This document shows positions 2,184-20,631 of a stretch of DNA of 64,000 nt, in pieces. Origin of the DNA: Escherichia phage vB_EcoP_PW8. The translations under genes and the position numbers were made by a program. The notes under the pieces were generated by a model. That model did not search any database. It had not been told where the DNA came from and was given only the letters and a program-made list of their open reading frames with translations. Within the stretch, counting starts at the first letter, position 1, and the number at the start of each line of letters is the position of its first letter. The stretch lies in sequence record PQ362703.1; one strand, given 5' to 3'.

Positions 2184-3317
2184 TTACAAAATAGTAATAG
2201 GAATCAATGTCACTACTACGTTACCAGGTACATAAGTAAGCTGATCACCTGTTACTGAGCCTACCCTAACGTTAGTAGGTAGCGGAGGTAGCTTATATGA
2301 CTTCTGCTGCCCAGTGACATAAATGACAGCTTTGTCATTAAGATAAGTAGTAGTATCTACATCTAGGATTACCTCAGAGTCTTTAATATTAAACCCCCGG
2401 GCAATCTCTTGAATGGTGCGATCTGTAGCATAGATAGTTTCAATATTACCGCCGATAGAGACAATCAATACATCATCAGTTGCCAGAGGTTCAGTTAGGA
2501 ATATGCGATGATTATTTGGGTCAATTGTATAGGACTTACTTGCCAGTCCCTTGTATCTGCGTAAACCGTTAACATAGATGGCAGGCACATCAAGGAATTC
2601 GAAAGGTATATCAATTACCTGCTCACCACCTACTGCATTACCGTAGTTATATAGCCAGTTAACAACACGCCAATTGTCAATGGTTGGCTTATCAGGAGAA
2701 GCAGGAACTCCTGTAAGGAAAGCGATTACTTCCTGCCCAGCTTCTAGTTCCTGTGCTAAGGTAATTACACCAGTAGTAGGATTAAACTCAAAACCCTTGC
2801 CTACTATCTGAACAAACCCATCTACAGTAATGAAGGGAACACCTACTGTATCTACGGGTACATTTACAGTTGTTTCCCCACCAACAGCATCATAGCTAAA
2901 CAAGATATATGTACTACTTCCTTCAGTAGGTTGGTCACCAGAACTAGAACTAACAGCTACCCAAGAACCGGAGGCAGAAGGGTTATCTGGAATAATCCCA
3001 GTAAGGTCGCCATCAACGTAAAGGTAGTCAGTGATTATACGCTTACCATCTATAGCAGTTTCGTAAATACGGGCATACTTAGCATCAGTAGTAAGAGCCT
3101 TAAGTTCGGCCTCAGACTGTATGCCAATAACCATTCCATACTGGTTCAGAAAATCATACAGGAGTTTAAGGTTACCCAAATTACAGTACACAGTACGAAC
3201 CACATGGTAAGCATTACCTAGTAGTGCATCTACCATTGGGTCATTGGAACTGTTCTGACAGTAAGGATTGGACCAATCCTGCTTTGCATCGAAGGGGTTG
3301 TGTGCGTTCATCGCCAT
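2184..3317 (-). CDS. virion/tail-associated structural protein
   Basis: 377-aa minus-strand ORF between the tail fiber-like gene and the terminase, in the late operon. No motif recognised. Confidence 0.4.
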   Translation of the reverse strand: MAMNAHNPFDAKQDWSNPYCQNSSNDPMVDALLGNAYHVVRTVYCNLGNLKLLYDFLNQYGMVIGIQSEAELKALTTDAKYARIYETAIDGKRIITDYLYVDGDLTGIIPDNPSASGSWVAVSSSSGDQPTEGSSTYILFSYDAVGGETTVNVPVDTVGVPFITVDGFVQIVGKGFEFNPTTGVITLAQELEAGQEVIAFLTGVPASPDKPTIDNWRVVNWLYNYGNAVGGEQVIDIPFEFLDVPAIYVNGLRRYKGLASKSYTIDPNNHRIFLTEPLATDDVLIVSIGGNIETIYATDRTIQEIARGFNIKDSEVILDVDTTTYLNDKAVIYVTGQQKSYKLPPLPTNVRVGSVTGDQLTYVPGNVVVTLIPITIL

Positions 3318-4018
3318 CCTCGTTGTTCAAATTTAGTTTCGGTAATTGAAATACTTCCATTAGCCAGGTCGTAATCAACAACCTCACCACAGATGCTTTC
3401 ATACGTTTGCAGATACTCTGCTGCCTTAGCATTAGCTTCCGGAGTATTCAAACCAGTGTGGTAACGATAACCCACCCAGTTATGAAGTGCTGTCATTAAT
3501 GTGTCTGCTAAGTCAACTTCCTGTTCTTCATCACCCGTAAGTACTGGGTGCTTAGCTTGATAAGTTACGTTAAGTGCCTCGAAGTGTCGAGGTCGCATAC
3601 ACTGAATAGTATCAGGCCGAGGGGTAAAAATTGCATGTGGGTCTGAATCGTCGTTCAGTCTACGTCTATTCCCAGAGCTATCAAATACATTTAAGATTTT
3701 AATAACATCATCCTGGAAAGGTTTCATGAACCCATCCATGATGTATGGATATTGAATCTCAAGAGTAGGCTTAGTAAAACGAGAATAGGCATATTTGGAT
3801 TGAAGAGGGTAATCAGTACGACCTTCCTTCATTTCCACAATACAACTATTAGTTCTGAGAGGAAAACGACTATGTAGTCGTACCAGCCCCTCATTAATAG
3901 CAGCCAGTATCTCAGGCTTACTATCTGGTTCAATATCTAATCTGTCATCCGTGACTGCACCAGTACCCTTCAAGGTACTCAATGCCAAGCCACGATATAC
4001 TTCCGATAATTTTTGCAT
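3308..4018 (-). CDS. hypothetical late protein adjacent to terminase
   Basis: 236-aa ORF directly downstream of the large terminase on the same strand. No motif recognised. Confidence 0.35.
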   Translation of the reverse strand: MQKLSEVYRGLALSTLKGTGAVTDDRLDIEPDSKPEILAAINEGLVRLHSRFPLRTNSCIVEMKEGRTDYPLQSKYAYSRFTKPTLEIQYPYIMDGFMKPFQDDVIKILNVFDSSGNRRRLNDDSDPHAIFTPRPDTIQCMRPRHFEALNVTYQAKHPVLTGDEEQEVDLADTLMTALHNWVGYRYHTGLNTPEANAKAAEYLQTYESICGEVVDYDLANGSISITETKFEQRGWR

Positions 4019-4024
4019 GGTTCC

Positions 4025-5635
4025 TCACACAATGTATGAACGCAGTGGGTTAATACTATCTTCTTCTTCATCATCCCACATTGGGTCACCCTTGTTATCC
4101 ACCATAGTCATACCTGCTTGTGGTTTCCAGGGATTGAGATAACCCAGCATAGAGATAGTATCAATACAGTCATCCTTACCTTTGATTCCATTAATGGTAG
4201 CTAATTTAATCTGGCCCATGAATAAACCCATAATAGTTGAATCTCTCAACTCTTCCGGGAAGTACATTTTACCAGCTTTGAACCATGGAACTACCAGGTT
4301 AAAACGTGACAGCTTAGAGGTTACAGGACGTATGCCTGGCTTACCACCCTCAGAGGATGCAAAGTTAAAGAAGACATTACGGTTAATCATTTCTTTCTGA
4401 AGAAGCGAGATGAACCCACCTTGCTGCCCTGTAATTTCGACCCCAACGTTTTGTGGTTGGTATTCCTGAACCAGACGGAACAGGTCATCAAAGTTTTTAT
4501 CCATAAGCTGACGATTAGCCACACCATCAACCCAGAACCAATCTCCATTAGAACTATAGGCCCAAACTGATATGACACTGTAGTCACTGGTCTGTTTCTC
4601 CGAAGTAGCAAAGTCGGTTGTAATGTAATAGTTGTAGCAGGACTTCATCCTTAATAGTTGCTGTCTGCTATACCATCTAATTTCACTATCCTGAACCAGT
4701 CTCTCATCTTCAGAGCTAATACGGAGCATAAGTTCCTGATAGAAGCCTGCAAGCTTACCCGTCTTAACTGCCATATCATATTGAGCCTTAATGTAGTCAT
4801 AAGAGAAACGGTCATCCCATGCACCCTGAAATTCTTCTCTACTACAAGGGAACTTCTCACACACAGGCCATACGTTGACATCCCATGCACCAGACTCAAC
4901 TGCTTCAATGATAATGTCTTCCTTATTAAAGGGAGTACCATTGAAGATTACTTTACGACGAGTAGGATCAAGGGCATGGTTCACACCTTTATAGACGGTG
5001 TCTTTAATAGCTTCCATGCTTGTTTTAGAGTTAGCATCACCATCACTAATCAGGTCATCCAATACACAGAGTGTTGGACGTTTGCCATATATCTTCGTAC
5101 CACGAAGACCTGTCTTAGCACCAAATAGCTTAACACCAAGTCGATGCCCTTCTACATTACGAAACTCTAACAGGTTATCCGTAAAGGTAGCTTCAGGTAT
5201 CCATTGCTGAAGGAACTCACTATTCTTGTAACGAAACTCAATGTTCTTACGTGCAGACTTAGCTCCGTTATCCATTGAGTCAGATACGTAAATCATTCCT
5301 TCTACCTTACCAAGACTTGGTAAGTGCCCAAACACTGCCAAGAACAAAGTAAAGTATTCCATGAATACAGCAGTCTTACCTGCACCACGGAAGCACAGGT
5401 TAACTACATACTGGTTCGGACTAATCATCTTATCCAGCATCTTCAAGTGAACTGGCGGTGTTTTGTTGGATTCACCTTCCTTACCATTAACCAACTTAAT
5501 GAAGTTGGCAAAGGTAAGAGCAAACTGACTAGGAACATAGTTAGATGAATTTAGGTGGGAGTAATCCACCTGGTCTAGCCATTCATCCAGTTCCTGTTTA
5601 ATTAACTCAGACATCTGTAATGTCCTCATCTGCAC
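4025..5635 (-). CDS. terL: terminase large subunit
   Basis: 536 aa. N-terminal P-loop (FRGAGKTAV) and C-terminal nuclease-like acidic segment (YYITTDFATSEKQTSDYSVISVW). Confidence 0.8.
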   Translation of the reverse strand: MQMRTLQMSELIKQELDEWLDQVDYSHLNSSNYVPSQFALTFANFIKLVNGKEGESNKTPPVHLKMLDKMISPNQYVVNLCFRGAGKTAVFMEYFTLFLAVFGHLPSLGKVEGMIYVSDSMDNGAKSARKNIEFRYKNSEFLQQWIPEATFTDNLLEFRNVEGHRLGVKLFGAKTGLRGTKIYGKRPTLCVLDDLISDGDANSKTSMEAIKDTVYKGVNHALDPTRRKVIFNGTPFNKEDIIIEAVESGAWDVNVWPVCEKFPCSREEFQGAWDDRFSYDYIKAQYDMAVKTGKLAGFYQELMLRISSEDERLVQDSEIRWYSRQQLLRMKSCYNYYITTDFATSEKQTSDYSVISVWAYSSNGDWFWVDGVANRQLMDKNFDDLFRLVQEYQPQNVGVEITGQQGGFISLLQKEMINRNVFFNFASSEGGKPGIRPVTSKLSRFNLVVPWFKAGKMYFPEELRDSTIMGLFMGQIKLATINGIKGKDDCIDTISMLGYLNPWKPQAGMTMVDNKGDPMWDDEEEDSINPLRSYIV

Positions 5636-6296
5636 GTACTAGTTTAGAACCAGCAACCTCTTTGGTAGGTACACCACTATTGATTGCATTAATCTGCTGT
5701 TCAGCTAATGCAGCAAGTGTTGCCTTGAGGTCGGTCAATCCAGAGTTCTCTCTCAAGTCCAGATTGATATTTGTTACCTGGTCTTTTGGTTTAGCTAAGT
5801 GAGTAAGGATAGAGTTAGCTGCATCACATCTTACCTTCTCGCTTGCTGCTGTAGTCATCAGTTCAACCTGAACGTTGATTGCCTTCTGGTAGTTGTCCTG
5901 GTTCACAATCCACACTGGAACCAGACTTTGTTCCATGATGAGGTTAACTAACTTACCTCTGTGATATGCAGATACATAAGCACTAATATCTTTCTCACTG
6001 GTTCCTCGTGCTACTAGTTCTGCTTGTCGGTTAGGGAATGTCTTGAAGTAGGCTTCCTTATTTGAGTAGCCCATATGTTTATAAGTCACATACTGAACTG
6101 CATTCATGTAGTCCTGCGTCTTAAACTTACCTTCCTTCATTACACCAGAGTAGGAGATAAAGTTTTCACGGAAGGACTCAGCAACCAGTTGATCTTGGAT
6201 TATGTTGTTAATTGTGTCTACCAACTCCTGGGTCACACTGTTCTTAAAGTTAGTAGGTAGTGCATTAATAATCTGCTGCTTAGTTAGTTCACTCAT
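5607..6296 (-). CDS. putative terminase small subunit
   Basis: 229-aa ORF immediately upstream of and overlapping terL on the same strand. Assignment by position only. Confidence 0.3.
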   Translation of the reverse strand: MSELTKQQIINALPTNFKNSVTQELVDTINNIIQDQLVAESFRENFISYSGVMKEGKFKTQDYMNAVQYVTYKHMGYSNKEAYFKTFPNRQAELVARGTSEKDISAYVSAYHRGKLVNLIMEQSLVPVWIVNQDNYQKAINVQVELMTTAASEKVRCDAANSILTHLAKPKDQVTNINLDLRENSGLTDLKATLAALAEQQINAINSGVPTKEVAGSKLVRADEDITDV

Positions 6297-16660: not shown

Positions 16661-16990
16661 ATGAAAACTTTACTTAAAGGTGTTGCTGTAGCTGCACTGA
16701 TAGCTTTGGTTCCAAATGCACAGGCAATTAAACCAGAACCAATTCTGGAAGGTGCTCAGGCTTACCTGGATGACACTCGTGATGCGTTCGGACAAGGATT
16801 CTTCATGGGCAGTATGATCTCTTACATCGAGAACACTAATAACTGTGTTCCTGAAGGTATTAAGTATTCAGTCATTCTGCCTAAGATTGCCAAAGTAGTT
16901 ATTTACGACTCTGCAATCCTCAAGATGAAGAATACATCTCAAATTGTTGTGTACTCAGTACACAAGGCATACCCCTGCACCAAATCTTAA
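16661..16990 (+). CDS. secreted/periplasmic small protein
   Basis: 109 aa with signal-peptide-like N-terminus (MKTLLKGVAVAALIALVPNAQA). Confidence 0.4.
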   Translation: MKTLLKGVAVAALIALVPNAQAIKPEPILEGAQAYLDDTRDAFGQGFFMGSMISYIENTNNCVPEGIKYSVILPKIAKVVIYDSAILKMKNTSQIVVYSVHKAYPCTKS

Positions 16991-17024
16991 TCAGTAATTC
17001 CATTAGCTTTAGGAGAGTAAGTAA

Positions 17025-17224
17025 ATGGCAAGCATCGACTCCTTGACTGTATGTAATTCACGTCAAGCTCGTAACTTTATTATCCGTGCCCTGAAAGCAG
17101 GTAACGTACCGTTCCTGACTTCATCACCAGGCATGGGTAAATCTGCAATTATTCGTTCTATTGCAGAAGAATTTGGTATGAAGCTGATAGACCATCGTCT
17201 GTCTACTTCTGCCCCGGAAGACCT
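17025..17224 (+). CDS. MoxR-like AAA+ ATPase, exon 1
   Basis: Contains Walker A (SSPGMGKSA). Frame stops 2 codons after the proposed 5' splice site at 17224. Confidence 0.55.
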
Positions 17225-18098
17225 TAACTAATAGGGCTTTGTGAGGGTGACCTCACATCGAAAGCTATCTAAATGGGGAAACTCCTACTATTACAGGGAA
17301 ACCATGATACACTCTGGTTTCCCAATAGAGGACAATCCCATGCTAAATATTAATGAAAGTTGGAAAGACATTGTTGGTTATGAAGGTTACTACGAAGTCT
17401 CTACGCATGGTCGTGTTAGAAATACCCATACAGGTATGATAAAGAACCAATGTGTACAGACTAGCGGCAAGTATCTACAAGTTAGTTTGTGGAAAGGCAA
17501 CAAAGAAAAAAGATGTTTAGTACATCGCTTAGTTGCTATAGCCTTCATTCCTAACCCCGAAGACAAGCCTCAAGTAAACCATTTAGACAAAAATGATAAG
17601 AACAACCATGTTCAAAATTTGGAATGGGTAACCATATCCGAGAATCATTTACATGCATTTGCTAATGGTAGAAAAGGCTCCAAATCCCGACTAGGTGAAA
17701 AAACTAGTAAAGCCTCTCAGTATCGATATGTGTACTGGGATACCAAAAGAGCTGTTTGGAAAGCATCTATAAAGATAGACGGCAAAACAGTAAACATTGG
17801 TAGATTCAATACTGACCTAGAAGCAGCTTTAGCCGCTGATGAGGCAATTGATTCCTGGGGCTGGGATAGAATTAAAAACTTTCAATAATTAAATGCCTAA
17901 CGACTATCGAAAACACGTAGTGATACGGAAGTGAGTAGAGTAGGGTGCAAGCCAATGGCACTCGAAAAGATAGCCACCCGGACAGGTAAAGCTGAGGGTG
18001 TTGATATAGTCTGGTCTGCGTAGTAATACGTAGCTGTATATGTCCAACTCGCATATACGGGTAGAGCCTTGCAAACTCTACTGAACATAACGTAGTGG
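17225..18098 (+). mobile_element. group I intron carrying an HNH homing endonuclease gene
   Basis: P-like (17271-17303, GGGGAAAC/CAGGGAAACC), Q-like (17334-17343 AATCCCATGC), R-like (17895-17909 GCCTAACGACTATCG) and S-like (18001-18014 TTGATATAGTCTGG) elements. Exon ACCU can pair with intron GGGU at 17245-17248. Last intron nucleotide is G at 18098. Splicing restores a DLLP motif. Confidence 0.6.
17340..17888 (+). CDS. intron-encoded HNH homing endonuclease
   Basis: Motifs WKDIVGYEGYYEVSTHGRVRN, HRLVAIAF...NHLDKNDKNNHVQNLEWVT and an AP2-like C-terminus. Start uncertain: ATG 17340 or 17304, or track start GTG 17241. Confidence 0.75.
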   Translation: MLNINESWKDIVGYEGYYEVSTHGRVRNTHTGMIKNQCVQTSGKYLQVSLWKGNKEKRCLVHRLVAIAFIPNPEDKPQVNHLDKNDKNNHVQNLEWVTISENHLHAFANGRKGSKSRLGEKTSKASQYRYVYWDTKRAVWKASIKIDGKTVNIGRFNTDLEAALAADEAIDSWGWDRIKNFQ

Positions 18099-18945
18099 TT
18101 TGCCATTCCGTAATGGTGACCGTGCAGAGTTTATTCCATTCGCTGACTTATTTCCCATTGAGGGAGACGAAGTACCCGAAGGTTATAATGGCTGGCTCCT
18201 GTTCCTTGATGAGTTCAACTCAGCTAGGAAAGAAGTGGTAGCTGCTGCATACAAACTGATTCTCGACCGTATGACTGGTCAGAAAAAACTTCATCCCAAT
18301 GTGATGATTGTTTGTGCTGGTAACAAAGCTACCGACCGTGCAATTGTTAACCCACTAGGTACTGCAATGCAGTCTCGTGTGGTTCACTTTGAAATGGAAC
18401 TTAACTTCGACATCTTCGTTGAAGACGTAATGATTCCACAACAATGGGATGAACGTCTGGTTGCATTTCTACATGCTAACCCTGGCTATCTGCACGACTT
18501 CGACCCTGCTCATAAGAACAAAACATTCTGTTGTCCTCGTACCTGGGACTTTGTTAACAAAGATCTCAAGAACCAACCAGAAGGTGCATTGCCTGACGAG
18601 GATTCCCTGTACTACAGTGGATTTGTTACACCAGGTAAGGCTGTAGAGTTTGTTCAGTTCACCCAGGTGTACAATCGTATCATTACGATCGAAAAGGTAG
18701 TCAAAGACCCATTGGGCTGTGCACTACCAGAAGATAACAACCTGTGCTGGGCTACCGTTAACCACTTGGCTAACAAAACTACTGAAGAGAACTTCGCTGA
18801 TGTTCTTCAGTACATTGAACGCTTTAAAACGTTCACTCATAAGATTCTGTACTTCCGTACAGTAGGCAGAGCATTGCCAGAACTTCAGGCTACCCCTGAA
18901 TGGCGTAAGGCTGCTGCTAATATCTCTCGTTACATTCACGGATAA
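18099..18945 (+). CDS. MoxR-like AAA+ ATPase, exon 2
   Basis: Begins LPFRNGD and contains Walker B (LLFLDEFN) about 45 residues after the exon 1 Walker A, then ...IVCAGN. Frame is open from 18091. Confidence 0.55.
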
Positions 18946-18949
18946 AACA

Positions 18950-20125
18950 ATGAACCAATTTCCTCAGCACACTCTTAGTGATGAACAACTCATGCGTGAG
19001 TATGACCGTATTCAAGCTCAGGCTTTCCTAGGACGCAGCGCAGCCTTCTTTGGTTCATTACTATGTAGTCTTAAATTCTCATGGAAACGTGGGGATTGCC
19101 CCACTGCATGTACGGATGGGATAGAACTCCATTTCAATCCTGATTTCTTTATCTGGATGTGTCCAGATGCAAGAGAAACAGTATTAATGCACGAACTATG
19201 GCATGTGGCATATCTACATGACATCCGTCGTGGAAGCCGTGACCCAGAAGTCTGGAACCAGGCATGTGACCACTTCATTAACCTTCAGTTAGAAGAGGAT
19301 GGTTATAAGTTCACTGGTATTGATGAAGGCATTTGCAAAGACCCCCAATATAAAGGATGGGTCGAAGAAGACATCTATGATGACCTGATGAAGAACCCTC
19401 AGAAAAGGCAAAAGCCGTCAGGGGGTGCTGGAGCAGGTCTTGCTGGCGACATGAAATCCCCCACTTCGGGGCAGTCCCAGGGTGCTGTCGTCAACAACGT
19501 AGTACGTGCAATGCAGAGCCAGAAGATGGCAGGTGGAACAATGCCTGGTAAGGGTGCTGGTCGTATGGAAGAGGTCATTACCCAATTCCTTAAACCAGTG
19601 GTTCCCTGGCAGGAAGTTCTGATGAATTTCTTTACCGACATTGATGACACTCATTATACGTGGGCCAGACCTAACCGTCGTTACACTGACATCTATCTAC
19701 CTTCCCTGGAAGATGATGAAGGGCGATTACGACACTTAGCCTACTTTGAGGATGTATCCGGTTCTATTAGTAGTGCTGACTCTCTGCGTTTTAACTCAGA
19801 GGTTGCCTACGTTAAGAGCCAGTTCAATCCTAAGAAGATGACCCTAATCACCTTCGATGATGTTATCCAAGAAGAGATAGACATCACTGAAGAAGATACT
19901 TTTGAGGAGATTAAGATTACTGGTCGTGGTGGTACAAACCTGGAACCAGTACGTGATTGGATTATTAAGAATAAGCCAACCGCTGCAATCATATTCTCTG
20001 ATATGTATGTTCGTCCAATGGAAGAACTACCATTTGATATCCCAATCATCTGGTGTGTTCTGAATAATCCTAATGCTACCGTACCTTTTGGGGAGGTAGT
20101 TCATATCCCTAAAGGAATGAAATAA
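18950..20125 (+). CDS. metallopeptidase-like / VWA-like protein, partner of the MoxR ATPase
   Basis: 391 aa with HExxH motif (HELWHVAYLH), directly downstream of the AAA+ ATPase gene. Confidence 0.5.
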   Translation: MNQFPQHTLSDEQLMREYDRIQAQAFLGRSAAFFGSLLCSLKFSWKRGDCPTACTDGIELHFNPDFFIWMCPDARETVLMHELWHVAYLHDIRRGSRDPEVWNQACDHFINLQLEEDGYKFTGIDEGICKDPQYKGWVEEDIYDDLMKNPQKRQKPSGGAGAGLAGDMKSPTSGQSQGAVVNNVVRAMQSQKMAGGTMPGKGAGRMEEVITQFLKPVVPWQEVLMNFFTDIDDTHYTWARPNRRYTDIYLPSLEDDEGRLRHLAYFEDVSGSISSADSLRFNSEVAYVKSQFNPKKMTLITFDDVIQEEIDITEEDTFEEIKITGRGGTNLEPVRDWIIKNKPTAAIIFSDMYVRPMEELPFDIPIIWCVLNNPNATVPFGEVVHIPKGMK

Positions 20126-20631
20126 TGGTTGTTAATGGTAATTCTCTATATCGTTCATCCCAGTTGCTAGATGTTCCTGACCATAAGGTATCCGAGCACG
20201 GTGTAAGCTATGGTTTAGGTGAAGCTGGTTATGATATTCGTATCAAACAAGACATTACCTTCTATCGCTTATTTGGGTTGATTCCAATGGTGAAAGTCGT
20301 TGATGGAAAACAAGTATCACGTCATTTCGGCAAGTTCACGTTGGCTTCAGCAATCGAGAAATTCAACATGTCCCCATCCTGTGTAGCAATCGTTCACGAT
20401 AAATCTACCTGGGCAAGACATGCATTATCAGTGTTCAATACCGTAATCGAACCAGGGTGGAAAGGTTGGCTTACTTTAGAGCTTGTCTATCATGGTCGTA
20501 AGAAATTGCATATCCCGGCTGGTTCTGGGATAGCTCAAGTATTATTTCATCTGGTTCAAGAACCTGCTAATTACAATGGCAAGTACATGAATCAGGAAAA
20601 CAAACCAGTAGCTGCAAGAAGCAGTAAATAA
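20125..20631 (+). CDS. dCTP deaminase / dUTPase-superfamily protein
   Basis: 168 aa with GYDIRI, S..AR and IEPGWKGWLTLEL motifs. Confidence 0.5.
   Translation: MVVNGNSLYRSSQLLDVPDHKVSEHGVSYGLGEAGYDIRIKQDITFYRLFGLIPMVKVVDGKQVSRHFGKFTLASAIEKFNMSPSCVAIVHDKSTWARHALSVFNTVIEPGWKGWLTLELVYHGRKKLHIPAGSGIAQVLFHLVQEPANYNGKYMNQENKPVAARSSK

Follow-up and report, generated by a model that had tools for sequence, protein, structure and literature searches.

The gene pair at positions 17025 to 20125 of the window (the whole 64,000-nucleotide stretch of Escherichia phage vB_EcoP_PW8, PQ362703.1, analyzed here) is identified by sequence and conserved synteny as the orthologues of N4 gp24, an AAA+ ATPase, and N4 gp25, a vWFA protein. 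We consider it rather probable that the two proteins constitute a dedicated module of an ATPase and its zincin/VWA partner, which would handle a client protein by capture, remodeling, and cleavage. Both are named core genes of N4 that have already been published, and the finding adds no new kind of system.

Gene order and the intron in gp24

The window, assigned by its sequence to a Gamaleyavirus (N4-like) phage, shares 94.5% DNA identity with Shigella phage pSb-1. PW8 has the same gene order as its N4-like relatives, namely RNAP2, small ORFs, gp24, gp25, dCTP deaminase, and ThyX, and the records of these relatives carry the annotation 'similar to gp24/gp25 from N4'. The gp25 proteins of PW8 and N4 are 61% identical. 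An intergenic gap of 4 nt separates gp24 from gp25, and the gp25 stop codon overlaps the ATG of the dCTP deaminase gene by 1 nt (TAATG). The two genes form an operon that is core to Schitoviridae, and both are listed among the core genes of N4-like phages (PMC4193335 Table 3, PMC7650795 Table 2). The earlier note had left their role in the phage as unknown, in agreement with the literature, where they are core genes without an assigned function (PMC4193335, PMC7650795). Its placement of the pair in a replication module is loose, however: the genes lie in the N4 middle-gene region, with RNAP2 and the Hoc-like gp17 on one side of them and dCTP deaminase and ThyX on the other. Features of the gp24 gene are as follows.

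17025..17224, + strand: gp24 exon 1, codons 1-66 and two bases of codon 67 (from the ORF list and the alignment to the intron-less ECBP1 gp24)
17121-17144, + strand: Walker A, SSPGMGKS, in exon 1
17225..18092, + strand: group I intron of 868 nt, inside codon Leu67 in the invariant motif DHRLSTSAPEDL/SGLP (slash, insertion site)
17304..17888, + strand: intron-encoded homing endonuclease, NUMOD4 + HNH_3 + AP2 (alternative GTG start at 17241)
18093..18945, + strand: gp24 exon 2, last base of codon 67 through the stop codon
18196-18213, + strand: Walker B, LLFLDE, in exon 2
18322-18324, + strand: sensor-1 N144, in exon 2
18376-18378, + strand: putative Arg finger R162, in exon 2, followed by the C-terminal helical domain

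The ORF beginning at ATG 17025 and stopping at 17231, and the 391-aa ORF at 18950..20125, lie exactly where the earlier note had put them. Its description of an intron-split AAA+ ATPase holds with respect to the split, but the first exon ends at 17224 and not at the ORF stop codon at 17231. In intron-less relatives such as ECBP1, gp24 is a single protein of 350 aa. The DNA of these relatives aligns to positions 16900-17225 and 18096-20267 of the window, with approximately 870 nt absent in between. This stretch is missing in 56 of 58 related phage records; PW8 has the intron with its homing endonuclease in common with pSb-1. Joining 17224 to 18093 generates a 350-aa ORF that contains ...APEDLSGLPF..., is identical to ECBP1 over that stretch, and is collinear with gp24 of the intron-less relatives. 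These boundaries leave a U at the end of the 5' exon and give an intron that runs from UAACUAA to a final G. The same rule of a U-ending exon and a G-ending intron holds in two further phages, U1G and L008, and restores the consensus protein in each. Two other junctions, 17225/18094 and 17226/18095, would leave the protein unchanged, but were rejected: neither pairs an exon ending in U with an intron ending in G, and neither can be carried over to U1G and L008.

We thus classify the inserted sequence as a mobile group I intron that is predicted to be self-splicing, and which, as read from the gene structure, must be removed from the mRNA for the 350-aa gp24 to be made. The alternative, that the ATPase gene has decayed into two fragments flanking an inserted endonuclease gene, would agree with the treatment of the fragments as separate genes by the pSb-1 annotators and with an Rfam Intron_gpI (RF00028) match below the gathering score (25.6 versus 50 bits, E 3.4e-4 for a 1-kb stretch; core GAUAUAGUC). 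L008 and L016 contain related introns that also match this Rfam family, at 24.5 and 23.7 bits. Large ORF insertions often lower the Rfam scores of group I introns. We regard decay as extremely improbable, given that canonical group I boundaries yield the exact 350-aa protein and are valid in two further phages, that both exons retain every invariant residue, and that the insertion site is reused in a phage with only 41% protein identity. In addition, the intron core of approximately 150 nt resembles introns of other phage genes, and compensatory changes occur in 18 of 41 pairs predicted within the intron structure, which is indicative as it comes from three introns only. The endonuclease has Pfam matches to NUMOD4 (E 1.1e-13), HNH_3 (E 4.7e-8), and AP2 (E 8.6e-7, below the cutoff), it also matches PHROG 59 and others labeled HNH endonuclease, and the equivalent CDS of pSb-1 is annotated as an HNH endonuclease.

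As a separate observation, introns and inteins recur in both genes, homing into the most conserved motifs of gp24 and gp25.

Domain architecture of gp24 and gp25

The spliced gp24 is best placed, by sequence and modeled fold, in the MoxR/AAA_5 class of AAA+ ATPases, which includes dynein, Midasin, CbbQ, and NorQ, and it is predicted to form a hexameric ring and to hydrolyze ATP. This is in accordance with the MoxR-like ATPase proposed earlier. Among solved structures the best sequence match of gp24 is Midasin (E 5.8e-4), and dynein, Midasin, CbbQ, and NorQ, rather than other AAA+ clades, are its nearest relatives in fold as well as in sequence. Profile comparison by hhalign gave a probability of 99.9% with a protein of Synechocystis plasmid pSYSA, annotated by PGAP as 'MoxR family ATPase', and of 99.7% with ASV44729.1 of phage Atu_ph07. 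In Pfam, gp24 passes the cutoff of generic AAA (27.2 versus 21.2 bits) and stays below those of the MoxR-class families AAA_5 (17.7 versus 22 bits) and bpMoxR (13.5 versus 27 bits); homologues from L010 (27.9 bits) and pSYSA (25.3 bits) are above the AAA_5 cutoff. An NCBIfam scan produced no hit for gp24 and no useful match for either protein. The catalytic motifs are present, comprising Walker A GxxGxGK[ST], Walker B hhhhDE, the sensor-1 Asn, and a candidate Arg finger, and G38, K39, S40, D106, E107, N144, and R162 are invariant among 34 homologues. With regard to the helix-2 insert and pre-sensor-1 beta-hairpin of the class, gp24 offers candidates: between beta2 and beta3 lies an invariant insert, DHRLSTSAPEDLSGLP, modeled at a pLDDT of about 44, and its likeness to MoxR motifs was judged by eye. 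The model further places short strands at 131-133 and 137-144 ahead of sensor-1, and a distinct C-terminal domain of approximately 180 aa.

The earlier note had described the protein encoded directly downstream as a 391-aa, HExxH metallopeptidase-like and VWA-like protein with the motif HELWH. The description is supported, for the VWA part by the fold and for the putative peptidase part by indirect evidence. A Pfam search of 18950..20125 identified DUF2201_N (E 3.2e-56) and DUF2201 (E 1e-33), with the following features.

18950..19714, + strand: gp25 N-terminal DUF2201_N putative zincin metallopeptidase domain, residues 1-255 (from Pfam PF13203, invariant columns, and model secondary structure)
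19190-19204, + strand: HELWH, residues 81-85
19217-19219, + strand: H90
19268-19270, + strand: invariant D107, in the motif WNxACD
19736..20125, + strand: gp25 C-terminal VWA domain, residues 263-391, and stop codon
19751-19765, + strand: MIDAS D268-x-S270-x-S272
19934-19936, + strand: MIDAS T329
20000-20002, + strand: MIDAS D351

The N-terminal domain is a putative zincin-type (HExxH) metallopeptidase, for which zinc-dependent proteolysis is predicted. PF13203 (DUF2201_N), a 'putative metallopeptidase' family, spans residues 17-253. Residues H81, E82, and H85 do not vary among 34 homologues with identities down to 47%, and HExxH is also kept in a relative that is only 29% identical. Candidates for the third zinc ligand are the invariant D107 and H90, the latter at least 90% conserved, with two sequences having Asp in its place. 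In the model, helices 11-25 and 31-40 precede three strands within 42-62, after which come the HExxH helix (72-87) and a further helix (99-116), a topology compatible with a putative zincin. The invariant D167 sits in a disordered, Gly-rich linker. A PDB sequence search with gp25 returned nothing, and a profile of the N-terminal 150 residues retrieved no solved relative.

The C-terminal domain is a VWA domain with a complete MIDAS metal site. All five residues of the DxSxS...T...D motif (D268, S270, S272, T329, and D351) are invariant. VWA matches filled the fold-search listings for gp25, and its structural neighbors include the VWA domain of NorD.

Homologues of gp25 are widely mislabeled as 'HNH endonuclease'.

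Distribution of the pair and candidate functions

The gp25 profile matches 14,740 clusters at 50% identity (E<=1e-10). All N4-like loci retrieved have the ATPase gene 5' of the DUF2201 gene, and this order of ATPase and VWA/MIDAS partner genes recurs in two jumbo phages (Atu_ph07 and JP4), on plasmids of Synechocystis and Ralstonia, and in a contig of an archaeal MAG. This constancy, together with the 4-nt gap and the overlap of gp25 with the next gene, speaks for a functional coupling of gp24 and gp25. Homologues are present in 109 plasmid records, 57 of which are typed as conjugative or mobilizable. The DUF2201 gene also occurs in rV5-like phages; in rV5 the two genes of the pair do not adjoin. 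The rV5 gp011 gene upstream of it was tested as a candidate ATPase partner and ruled out. A scan of a genome collection returned mainly N4-like phage contigs binned into MAGs and not cellular homologues. Searches of the literature, including DUF2201, COG3864, CRISPRi-ART, and phage transposon screens, found no experiment on gp24 or gp25, nor a report of zinc-dependent proteolysis for the DUF2201_N family.

Most likely, gp24 and gp25 act as a complex in the proteolysis of a client. By analogy with CbbQ/CbbO, NorQ/NorD, and Midasin, the MIDAS site of gp25 would bind a specific client protein through one of its acidic residues, the gp24 ring would pull on or remodel this client by ATP hydrolysis, and the tethered zincin domain of gp25 would then cut it. 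Because the same module is also found on many plasmids, we lean toward an intracellular, non-virion client, either a host protein or a replication-associated one, handled in the middle phase of infection. Besides the 109 plasmid records, we count here the position of the pSYSA pair among toxin-antitoxin and DUF262 genes and the classification of the N4 gp24/25 transcripts as middle (PMC4193335).

A role in virion morphogenesis, in which the MoxR/vWA proteins assist head or tail assembly and the zincin trims structural proteins, is possible, although we think it unlikely. It was proposed for ASV44729.1/ASV44728.2 of Atu_ph07, which are homologous to gp24 and gp25, by analogy with p618/p892 of Acidianus two-tailed virus (Iyer et al. 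2021, PMC7824862). Several contexts would fit virion assembly: N4-like phages encode the Hoc-like decoration protein gp17 a few genes 5' of the pair, virion structural genes are immediately upstream of the pair in JP4, and in roseophages a 'second structural module' is near the gp24/25 homologues, which adjoin virion-protein genes in RPP1 (PMC4193335). However, the gp24/25 transcripts of N4 are not late, and the homologues are absent from the virion proteins listed for RPP1 and RLP1 (PMC4193335). The neighbors of the pair in N4-like phages and JP4 are nucleotide-metabolism genes, and the pSYSA and Ralstonia plasmid contexts inspected contain no virion genes.

Alternatively, the pair could be a counter-defense or host-takeover protease that destroys a host defense or housekeeping protein soon after entry, with the same use for plasmids, a reading we consider unlikely. 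Mobile elements as unrelated as Schitoviridae, jumbo phages, rV5-like phages, and plasmids carry the module, the pSYSA setting would be in line with such a function, and a proposal exists that zincin peptidases encoded by phages and plasmids act on host proteins (PMC7824862). Yet gp24 and gp25 are core genes present throughout the family and well conserved in it (50-60% identity), unlike anti-defense genes, which typically evolve fast and are patchy. A PADLOC scan gave no match of note, and the pair has no known anti-defense annotation.

We regard as quite improbable an activation chaperone that operates without proteolysis, like NorQ/NorD, CoxD/CoxE, CobS/CobT, and CbbQ/CbbO, inserting a cofactor or activating an enzyme. 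The HExxH domain would then be a metal-binding or docking module for maturing a phage enzyme such as ThyX or RNA polymerase, which we rate no higher. Such a function would suit the structural neighbors (NorQ, CbbQ, and the NorD VWA domain) and the proximity of the pair to dCTP deaminase and ThyX genes in N4-like phages and to a thymidylate synthase gene in JP4. Across phages and plasmids, however, no constant partner enzyme is encoded beside the pair, and the invariance of E82, the catalytic Glu of HExxH, is as expected of a hydrolase rather than of a mere metal site.

Returning to the proteolytic ATPase-zincin/VWA module, we can envisage, as a doubtful proposition, that it serves as a general 'establishment' weapon of mobile DNA, that is, a MIDAS-guided, AAA+-powered zincin protease directed against a specific host protein. 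This would explain the presence of one cassette in all N4-like phages, in jumbo phages, and on more than 100 plasmids. A defense factor or a DNA-bound protein may be its target, which is likewise speculative. Given that gp24 and gp25 are within the approximately 14 genes common to all N4-like phages, the identity of the client would fill a gap in the biology of N4, of jumbo phages, and of the plasmids with this cassette. Of practical value are a clean gene model of the spliced gp24, the correction of the propagated 'HNH endonuclease' misannotation of gp25 homologues, and a list of informative point mutants.

Comparison with known systems

CbbQ/CbbO and NorQ/NorD combine a MoxR hexamer with a VWA-MIDAS adaptor. 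A peptidase domain is missing from CbbO and NorD, whose clients are Rubisco and nitric oxide reductase, respectively. Compared with CbbQ and NorQ, gp24 differs by its C-terminal domain of approximately 180 aa and is under the Pfam AAA_5 cutoff. Midasin/Rea1, the eukaryotic combination of an AAA_5 ring and a MIDAS domain, is a single giant polypeptide with six fused AAA modules and without a peptidase, and works in ribosome biogenesis.

The SprT/Wss1 zincins with Cdc48/p97 provide an analogy only, in the shared theme of a protease coupled to an AAA+ unfoldase. In these small zincins, as in HELWHVAYLH of gp25, the HExxH motif is followed five residues later by a third His. A SprT-like identity of gp25 was rejected: hhalign of its N-domain profile with E. 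coli SprT (YggI) gave a probability of only 11%, which is not significant, although the alignment is topologically sensible. Moreover, gp25 has no evident DNA-binding domain, and we do not claim membership.

A virus-encoded MoxR-VWA pair like gp24/gp25 is p618 (MoxR) and p892 (VWA) of Acidianus two-tailed virus, likened here by description (PMC7824862); this pair has no peptidase domain and belongs to an archaeal virus with extracellular tail growth. For the group 2.2 jumbo phages, Iyer et al. 2021 described a chaperone-cochaperone pair of a MoxR AAA+ protein and a metallopeptidase-vWA protein in an account that does not discuss N4-like phages (PMC7824862). The resemblance to bacterial MoxR-VWA chaperone-like pairs pointed out in the earlier note concerns an architecture already known from phages. 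Atu_ph07 ASV44729.1 and ASV44728.2 are longer (417 and 429 aa) and only about 23-29% identical to the PW8 proteins. ASV44728.2 is nevertheless homologous to gp25 (tblastn E 2e-13, matching Pfam domains), and the Atu_ph07 and PW8 pairs have the same two-gene architecture and domain composition.

Identity and previous description of the gene pair

In DNA comparison, the region 16900-20200 was 94.5% identical to Shigella phage pSb-1 across its full length and matched about 56 other Gamaleyavirus records (G7C-like and N4-like; Schitoviridae) at about 92-94% identity, in two or three pieces. The relatives annotate these genes as an ATPase, a hypothetical or VWA-like protein and a dCTP deaminase, and the record of phage Bp4 carries the explicit labels 'similar to gp24' and 'similar to gp25' of phage N4. 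Gene 24 (given as 'unknown' or 'AAA+ ATPase') and gene 25 ('vWFA domain') belong to the small set of group-wide genes in published core-genome analyses of N4-like phages, which assign a function to neither (PMC4193335 Table 3, PMC2784036, PMC7650795 Table 2). The finding thus concerns a named gene pair, already known, ordinary and well conserved among phages. We found no experimental work on N4-like gp24/gp25 in the searchable literature.

A group I intron in gp24

The ORFs lie in the region given in an earlier note: 17025..17231 and 18100..18945 for one gene and 18950..20125 for the next. That note had also read the ATPase gene as split by an intron, which comparison with intron-less relatives bears out: these, for example phage ECBP1, have one 350-aa ATPase, and their DNA aligns to window positions 16900-17225 and 18096-20267, while the roughly 870 nt in between have no match. 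The gp24 frame is restored at several neighbouring junctions, each shifted by one base. Group I splicing calls for U as the last base of the exon and G as the last base of the intron, and only 17224/18093 provides both. Spliced at this junction, gp24 has 350 aa and reads ...STSAPEDLSGLPFRNG..., identical to ECBP1 in that stretch; as a database query it retrieved many proteins of the same full length, 350 aa, with identities of 95-96%.

17225-18092, + strand: 868-nt insert in gp24, containing an ORF with NUMOD4, HNH_3 and AP2 domains

Such an ORF is typical of a phage homing endonuclease. Over the 3'-terminal third of the insert, the top Rfam match is a group I model (25.6 bits, E 3.4e-4, under the gathering threshold) and takes in the core element GAUAUAGUC. 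A 150-nt core resembles inserts in genes of other phages, including Pseudomonas KIL terminase genes and loci of Dickeya and Aeromonas phages. A 73-kb N4-like contig from a Gastranaerophilales MAG bin has, at 3286-4143, a homologous intron with a NUMOD4-HNH-AP2 endonuclease in precisely the same codon (DL/[ST]GLP), and its gp24 and gp25 share only about 41% identity with the vB_EcoP_PW8 proteins; the sequences thereby indicate intron mobility between distant Schitoviridae. In phage U1G (about 1818-2700), a related intron lies 38 codons downstream, between codon 105 and the Walker B Asp-Glu that directly follows; it too starts with UAACUAA and has a similar core, but its HNH gene is a different one. 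Introns thus home to at least two sites in Gamaleyavirus gp24. Each of the three introns starts with UAAYUAA behind a U of the exon and has G as its last base; all match Rfam group I, and 18 of the 41 predicted base pairs show compensatory changes among them. From these comparisons we regard the insert as established to be a group I intron, with splicing predicted.

Homing elements usually sit in the most conserved stretch of the host protein, and the insertion point here is that of gp24, DHRLSTSAPEDL/SGLP, invariant in 34 homologues. The flanking codons (17207-17224, 18093-18105) differ synonymously from those of intron-less relatives (CTT AGT GGT TTG vs CTT TCT GGT CTA in ECBP1), a pattern to be expected from protection of the intron-bearing allele against its own endonuclease, or from co-conversion of the flanks. 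The intron is 98.7% identical to that of pSb-1, above the 94.5% for the region overall.

Domains and conserved residues of gp24 and gp25

For gp24, only the generic AAA model passes the Pfam threshold (27.2 bits); AAA_5 (17.7) and bpMoxR (13.5) fall under their cutoffs, and an NCBIfam scan gave no match. Among solved structures, sequence search gave a single significant match, an AAA module of Midasin (E 5.8e-4). Walker A, Walker B, the sensor-1 Asn and the Arg finger candidate are invariant in 34 homologues, more distant homologues exceed the AAA_5 threshold, and the gp24 profile aligns over 266 columns (99.9% probability) with a Synechocystis pSYSA protein named 'MoxR family ATPase' by NCBI. 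'MoxR-like', as the earlier note had called it, is therefore a fair label, although gp24 itself misses one formal criterion, the family-model cutoff. The second protein had been described as metallopeptidase-like and VWA-like, and a domain search of 18950..20125 returned both domains:

gp25 residues 17-253: DUF2201_N ('putative metallopeptidase domain'), Pfam E 3.2e-56
gp25 residues 263-386: DUF2201 ('VWA-like domain'), Pfam E 1e-33

The observation of the pair is thus confirmed, and its interpretation supported.

H81, E82 and H85 of HExxH are invariant across 34 homologues with identities as low as 47%, as are D107 in WNxACD and all residues of a complete MIDAS (D268-x-S270-x-S272, T329, D351). 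VWA dominates among the fold-search matches listed; profile search found no PDB relatives of the N-domain, and hhalign gave only a suggestive match to E. coli SprT. The N-domain is predicted to have two helices followed by a sheet of three strands, the HExxH helix and then a helix with D107, a topology that looks like that of a small zincin. Some gp25 relatives, P0253 (701 aa) and P0244 (519 aa), contain inteins (Intein_splicing E 4.7e-11; Hint/Vint E 1.2e-5, under cutoff) at profile position about 103-105, inside WNxACD and right after the HExxH helix, a further sign that this motif is functionally critical. D167 (about 19448-19450) is an invariant Asp (G-D-M/L) in a variable, Gly-rich, low-confidence linker at the peptidase/VWA junction; it may serve as an internal MIDAS pseudo-ligand or a zinc-blocking 'switch' residue, or mark a site of self-cleavage.

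Homologues of gp25 are often labelled 'HNH endonuclease' or 'homing endonuclease' (nithesis, Moo19, JP4, V5, Cassandra and many RefSeq N4-like phages), as is PHROG 1314, the gp25 family. Pfam gives only DUF2201_N and DUF2201, and no HNH domain, in proteins so labelled; the label probably stems from records with a fused or adjacent homing endonuclease gene. The Bp4 record (4177-4693) is such a case: a free-standing HNH gene stands in place of the junction between gp24 and gp25, and the annotation fuses it to the beginning of gp25. The pSb-1 record (5096-6227) divides gp25 into two CDSs, with apparent frameshifts and 11 gaps relative to the window, where it is a single intact 391-aa ORF.

Distribution and possible role

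Only 4 nt separate gp24 from gp25, whose stop overlaps the dCTP deaminase start. All N4-like loci retrieved have a gp24 homologue upstream of that of gp25. This order recurs in the jumbo phages Atu_ph07 and JP4, in an archaeal-MAG contig with only 29% identity and in Synechocystis and Ralstonia plasmids; homing endonuclease genes have been inserted between or within the two genes in Bp4, Cassandra and two further loci (L005, L011). A gp25 homologue is present in 699 phage records, from N4-like, jumbo and rV5-like phages; the Atu_ph07 homologue as query matched 109 plasmid records, and the gp25 profile matched 14,740 clusters at E<=1e-10 among 1.84 billion cluster representatives. On pSYSA (3943-6221), the pair, a MoxR family ATPase and VWA-like Sll7028, is surrounded by toxin-antitoxin genes (HepT-like, PIN-like, GNAT/DUF1778) and a DUF262 gene, a defence-island-like neighbourhood. 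Schitoviridae are regarded as strictly lytic. Two very long bacterial contigs, from a Roseococcus MAG (L005, 297 kb) and Mesorhizobium yinganensis CN2-181 (L006, 727 kb), contain an N4-like block of gp24, gp25, dCTP deaminase and ThyX, with RNAP2 also detected in the former; they may represent N4-like elements that are integrated or carried along, or else chimeric assemblies. Elsewhere in the window, two tRNA genes are adjacent (43680-43752 and 43761-43834, +; Rfam 40.7 and 64.8 bits).

Iyer et al. proposed a virion-assembly role with proteolytic processing for the MoxR/metallopeptidase-vWA pair of jumbo phages, citing a MoxR-vWA pair of Acidianus two-tailed virus (PMC7824862); we show here that their Atu_ph07 exemplars, ASV44729.1 and ASV44728.2, are homologues of gp24 and gp25. 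A Hoc-like gp17 nearby, virion genes upstream of the pair in JP4 and a 'second structural module' adjoining the roseophage homologues (PMC4193335) are consistent with this role, but plasmid copies of the module, the middle-phase transcription reported for N4 gp24/25 (PMC4193335) and neighbouring nucleotide-metabolism genes in N4-like phages and JP4 argue against a purely virion-related one, and we consider it possible but doubtful. A function in counter-defence or host takeover seems unlikely, and cofactor insertion without proteolysis quite improbable. All three estimates sit within that for the generic mechanism set out next, which we hold, with moderate confidence, to be probable.

The residues of gp24 and gp25 predicted to act in hydrolysing ATP, coordinating the MIDAS ion and zincin catalysis are invariant, from which we infer a three-step machine: the gp25 MIDAS would capture a client, ATP-driven remodelling would follow, and the tethered zincin domain would cleave it. 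The analogy is with the characterised MoxR-VWA systems CbbQ/CbbO, NorQ/NorD and Midasin, in which an acidic residue of the client is held by the MIDAS ion of the VWA domain and the AAA+ ring exerts force and remodels the client.
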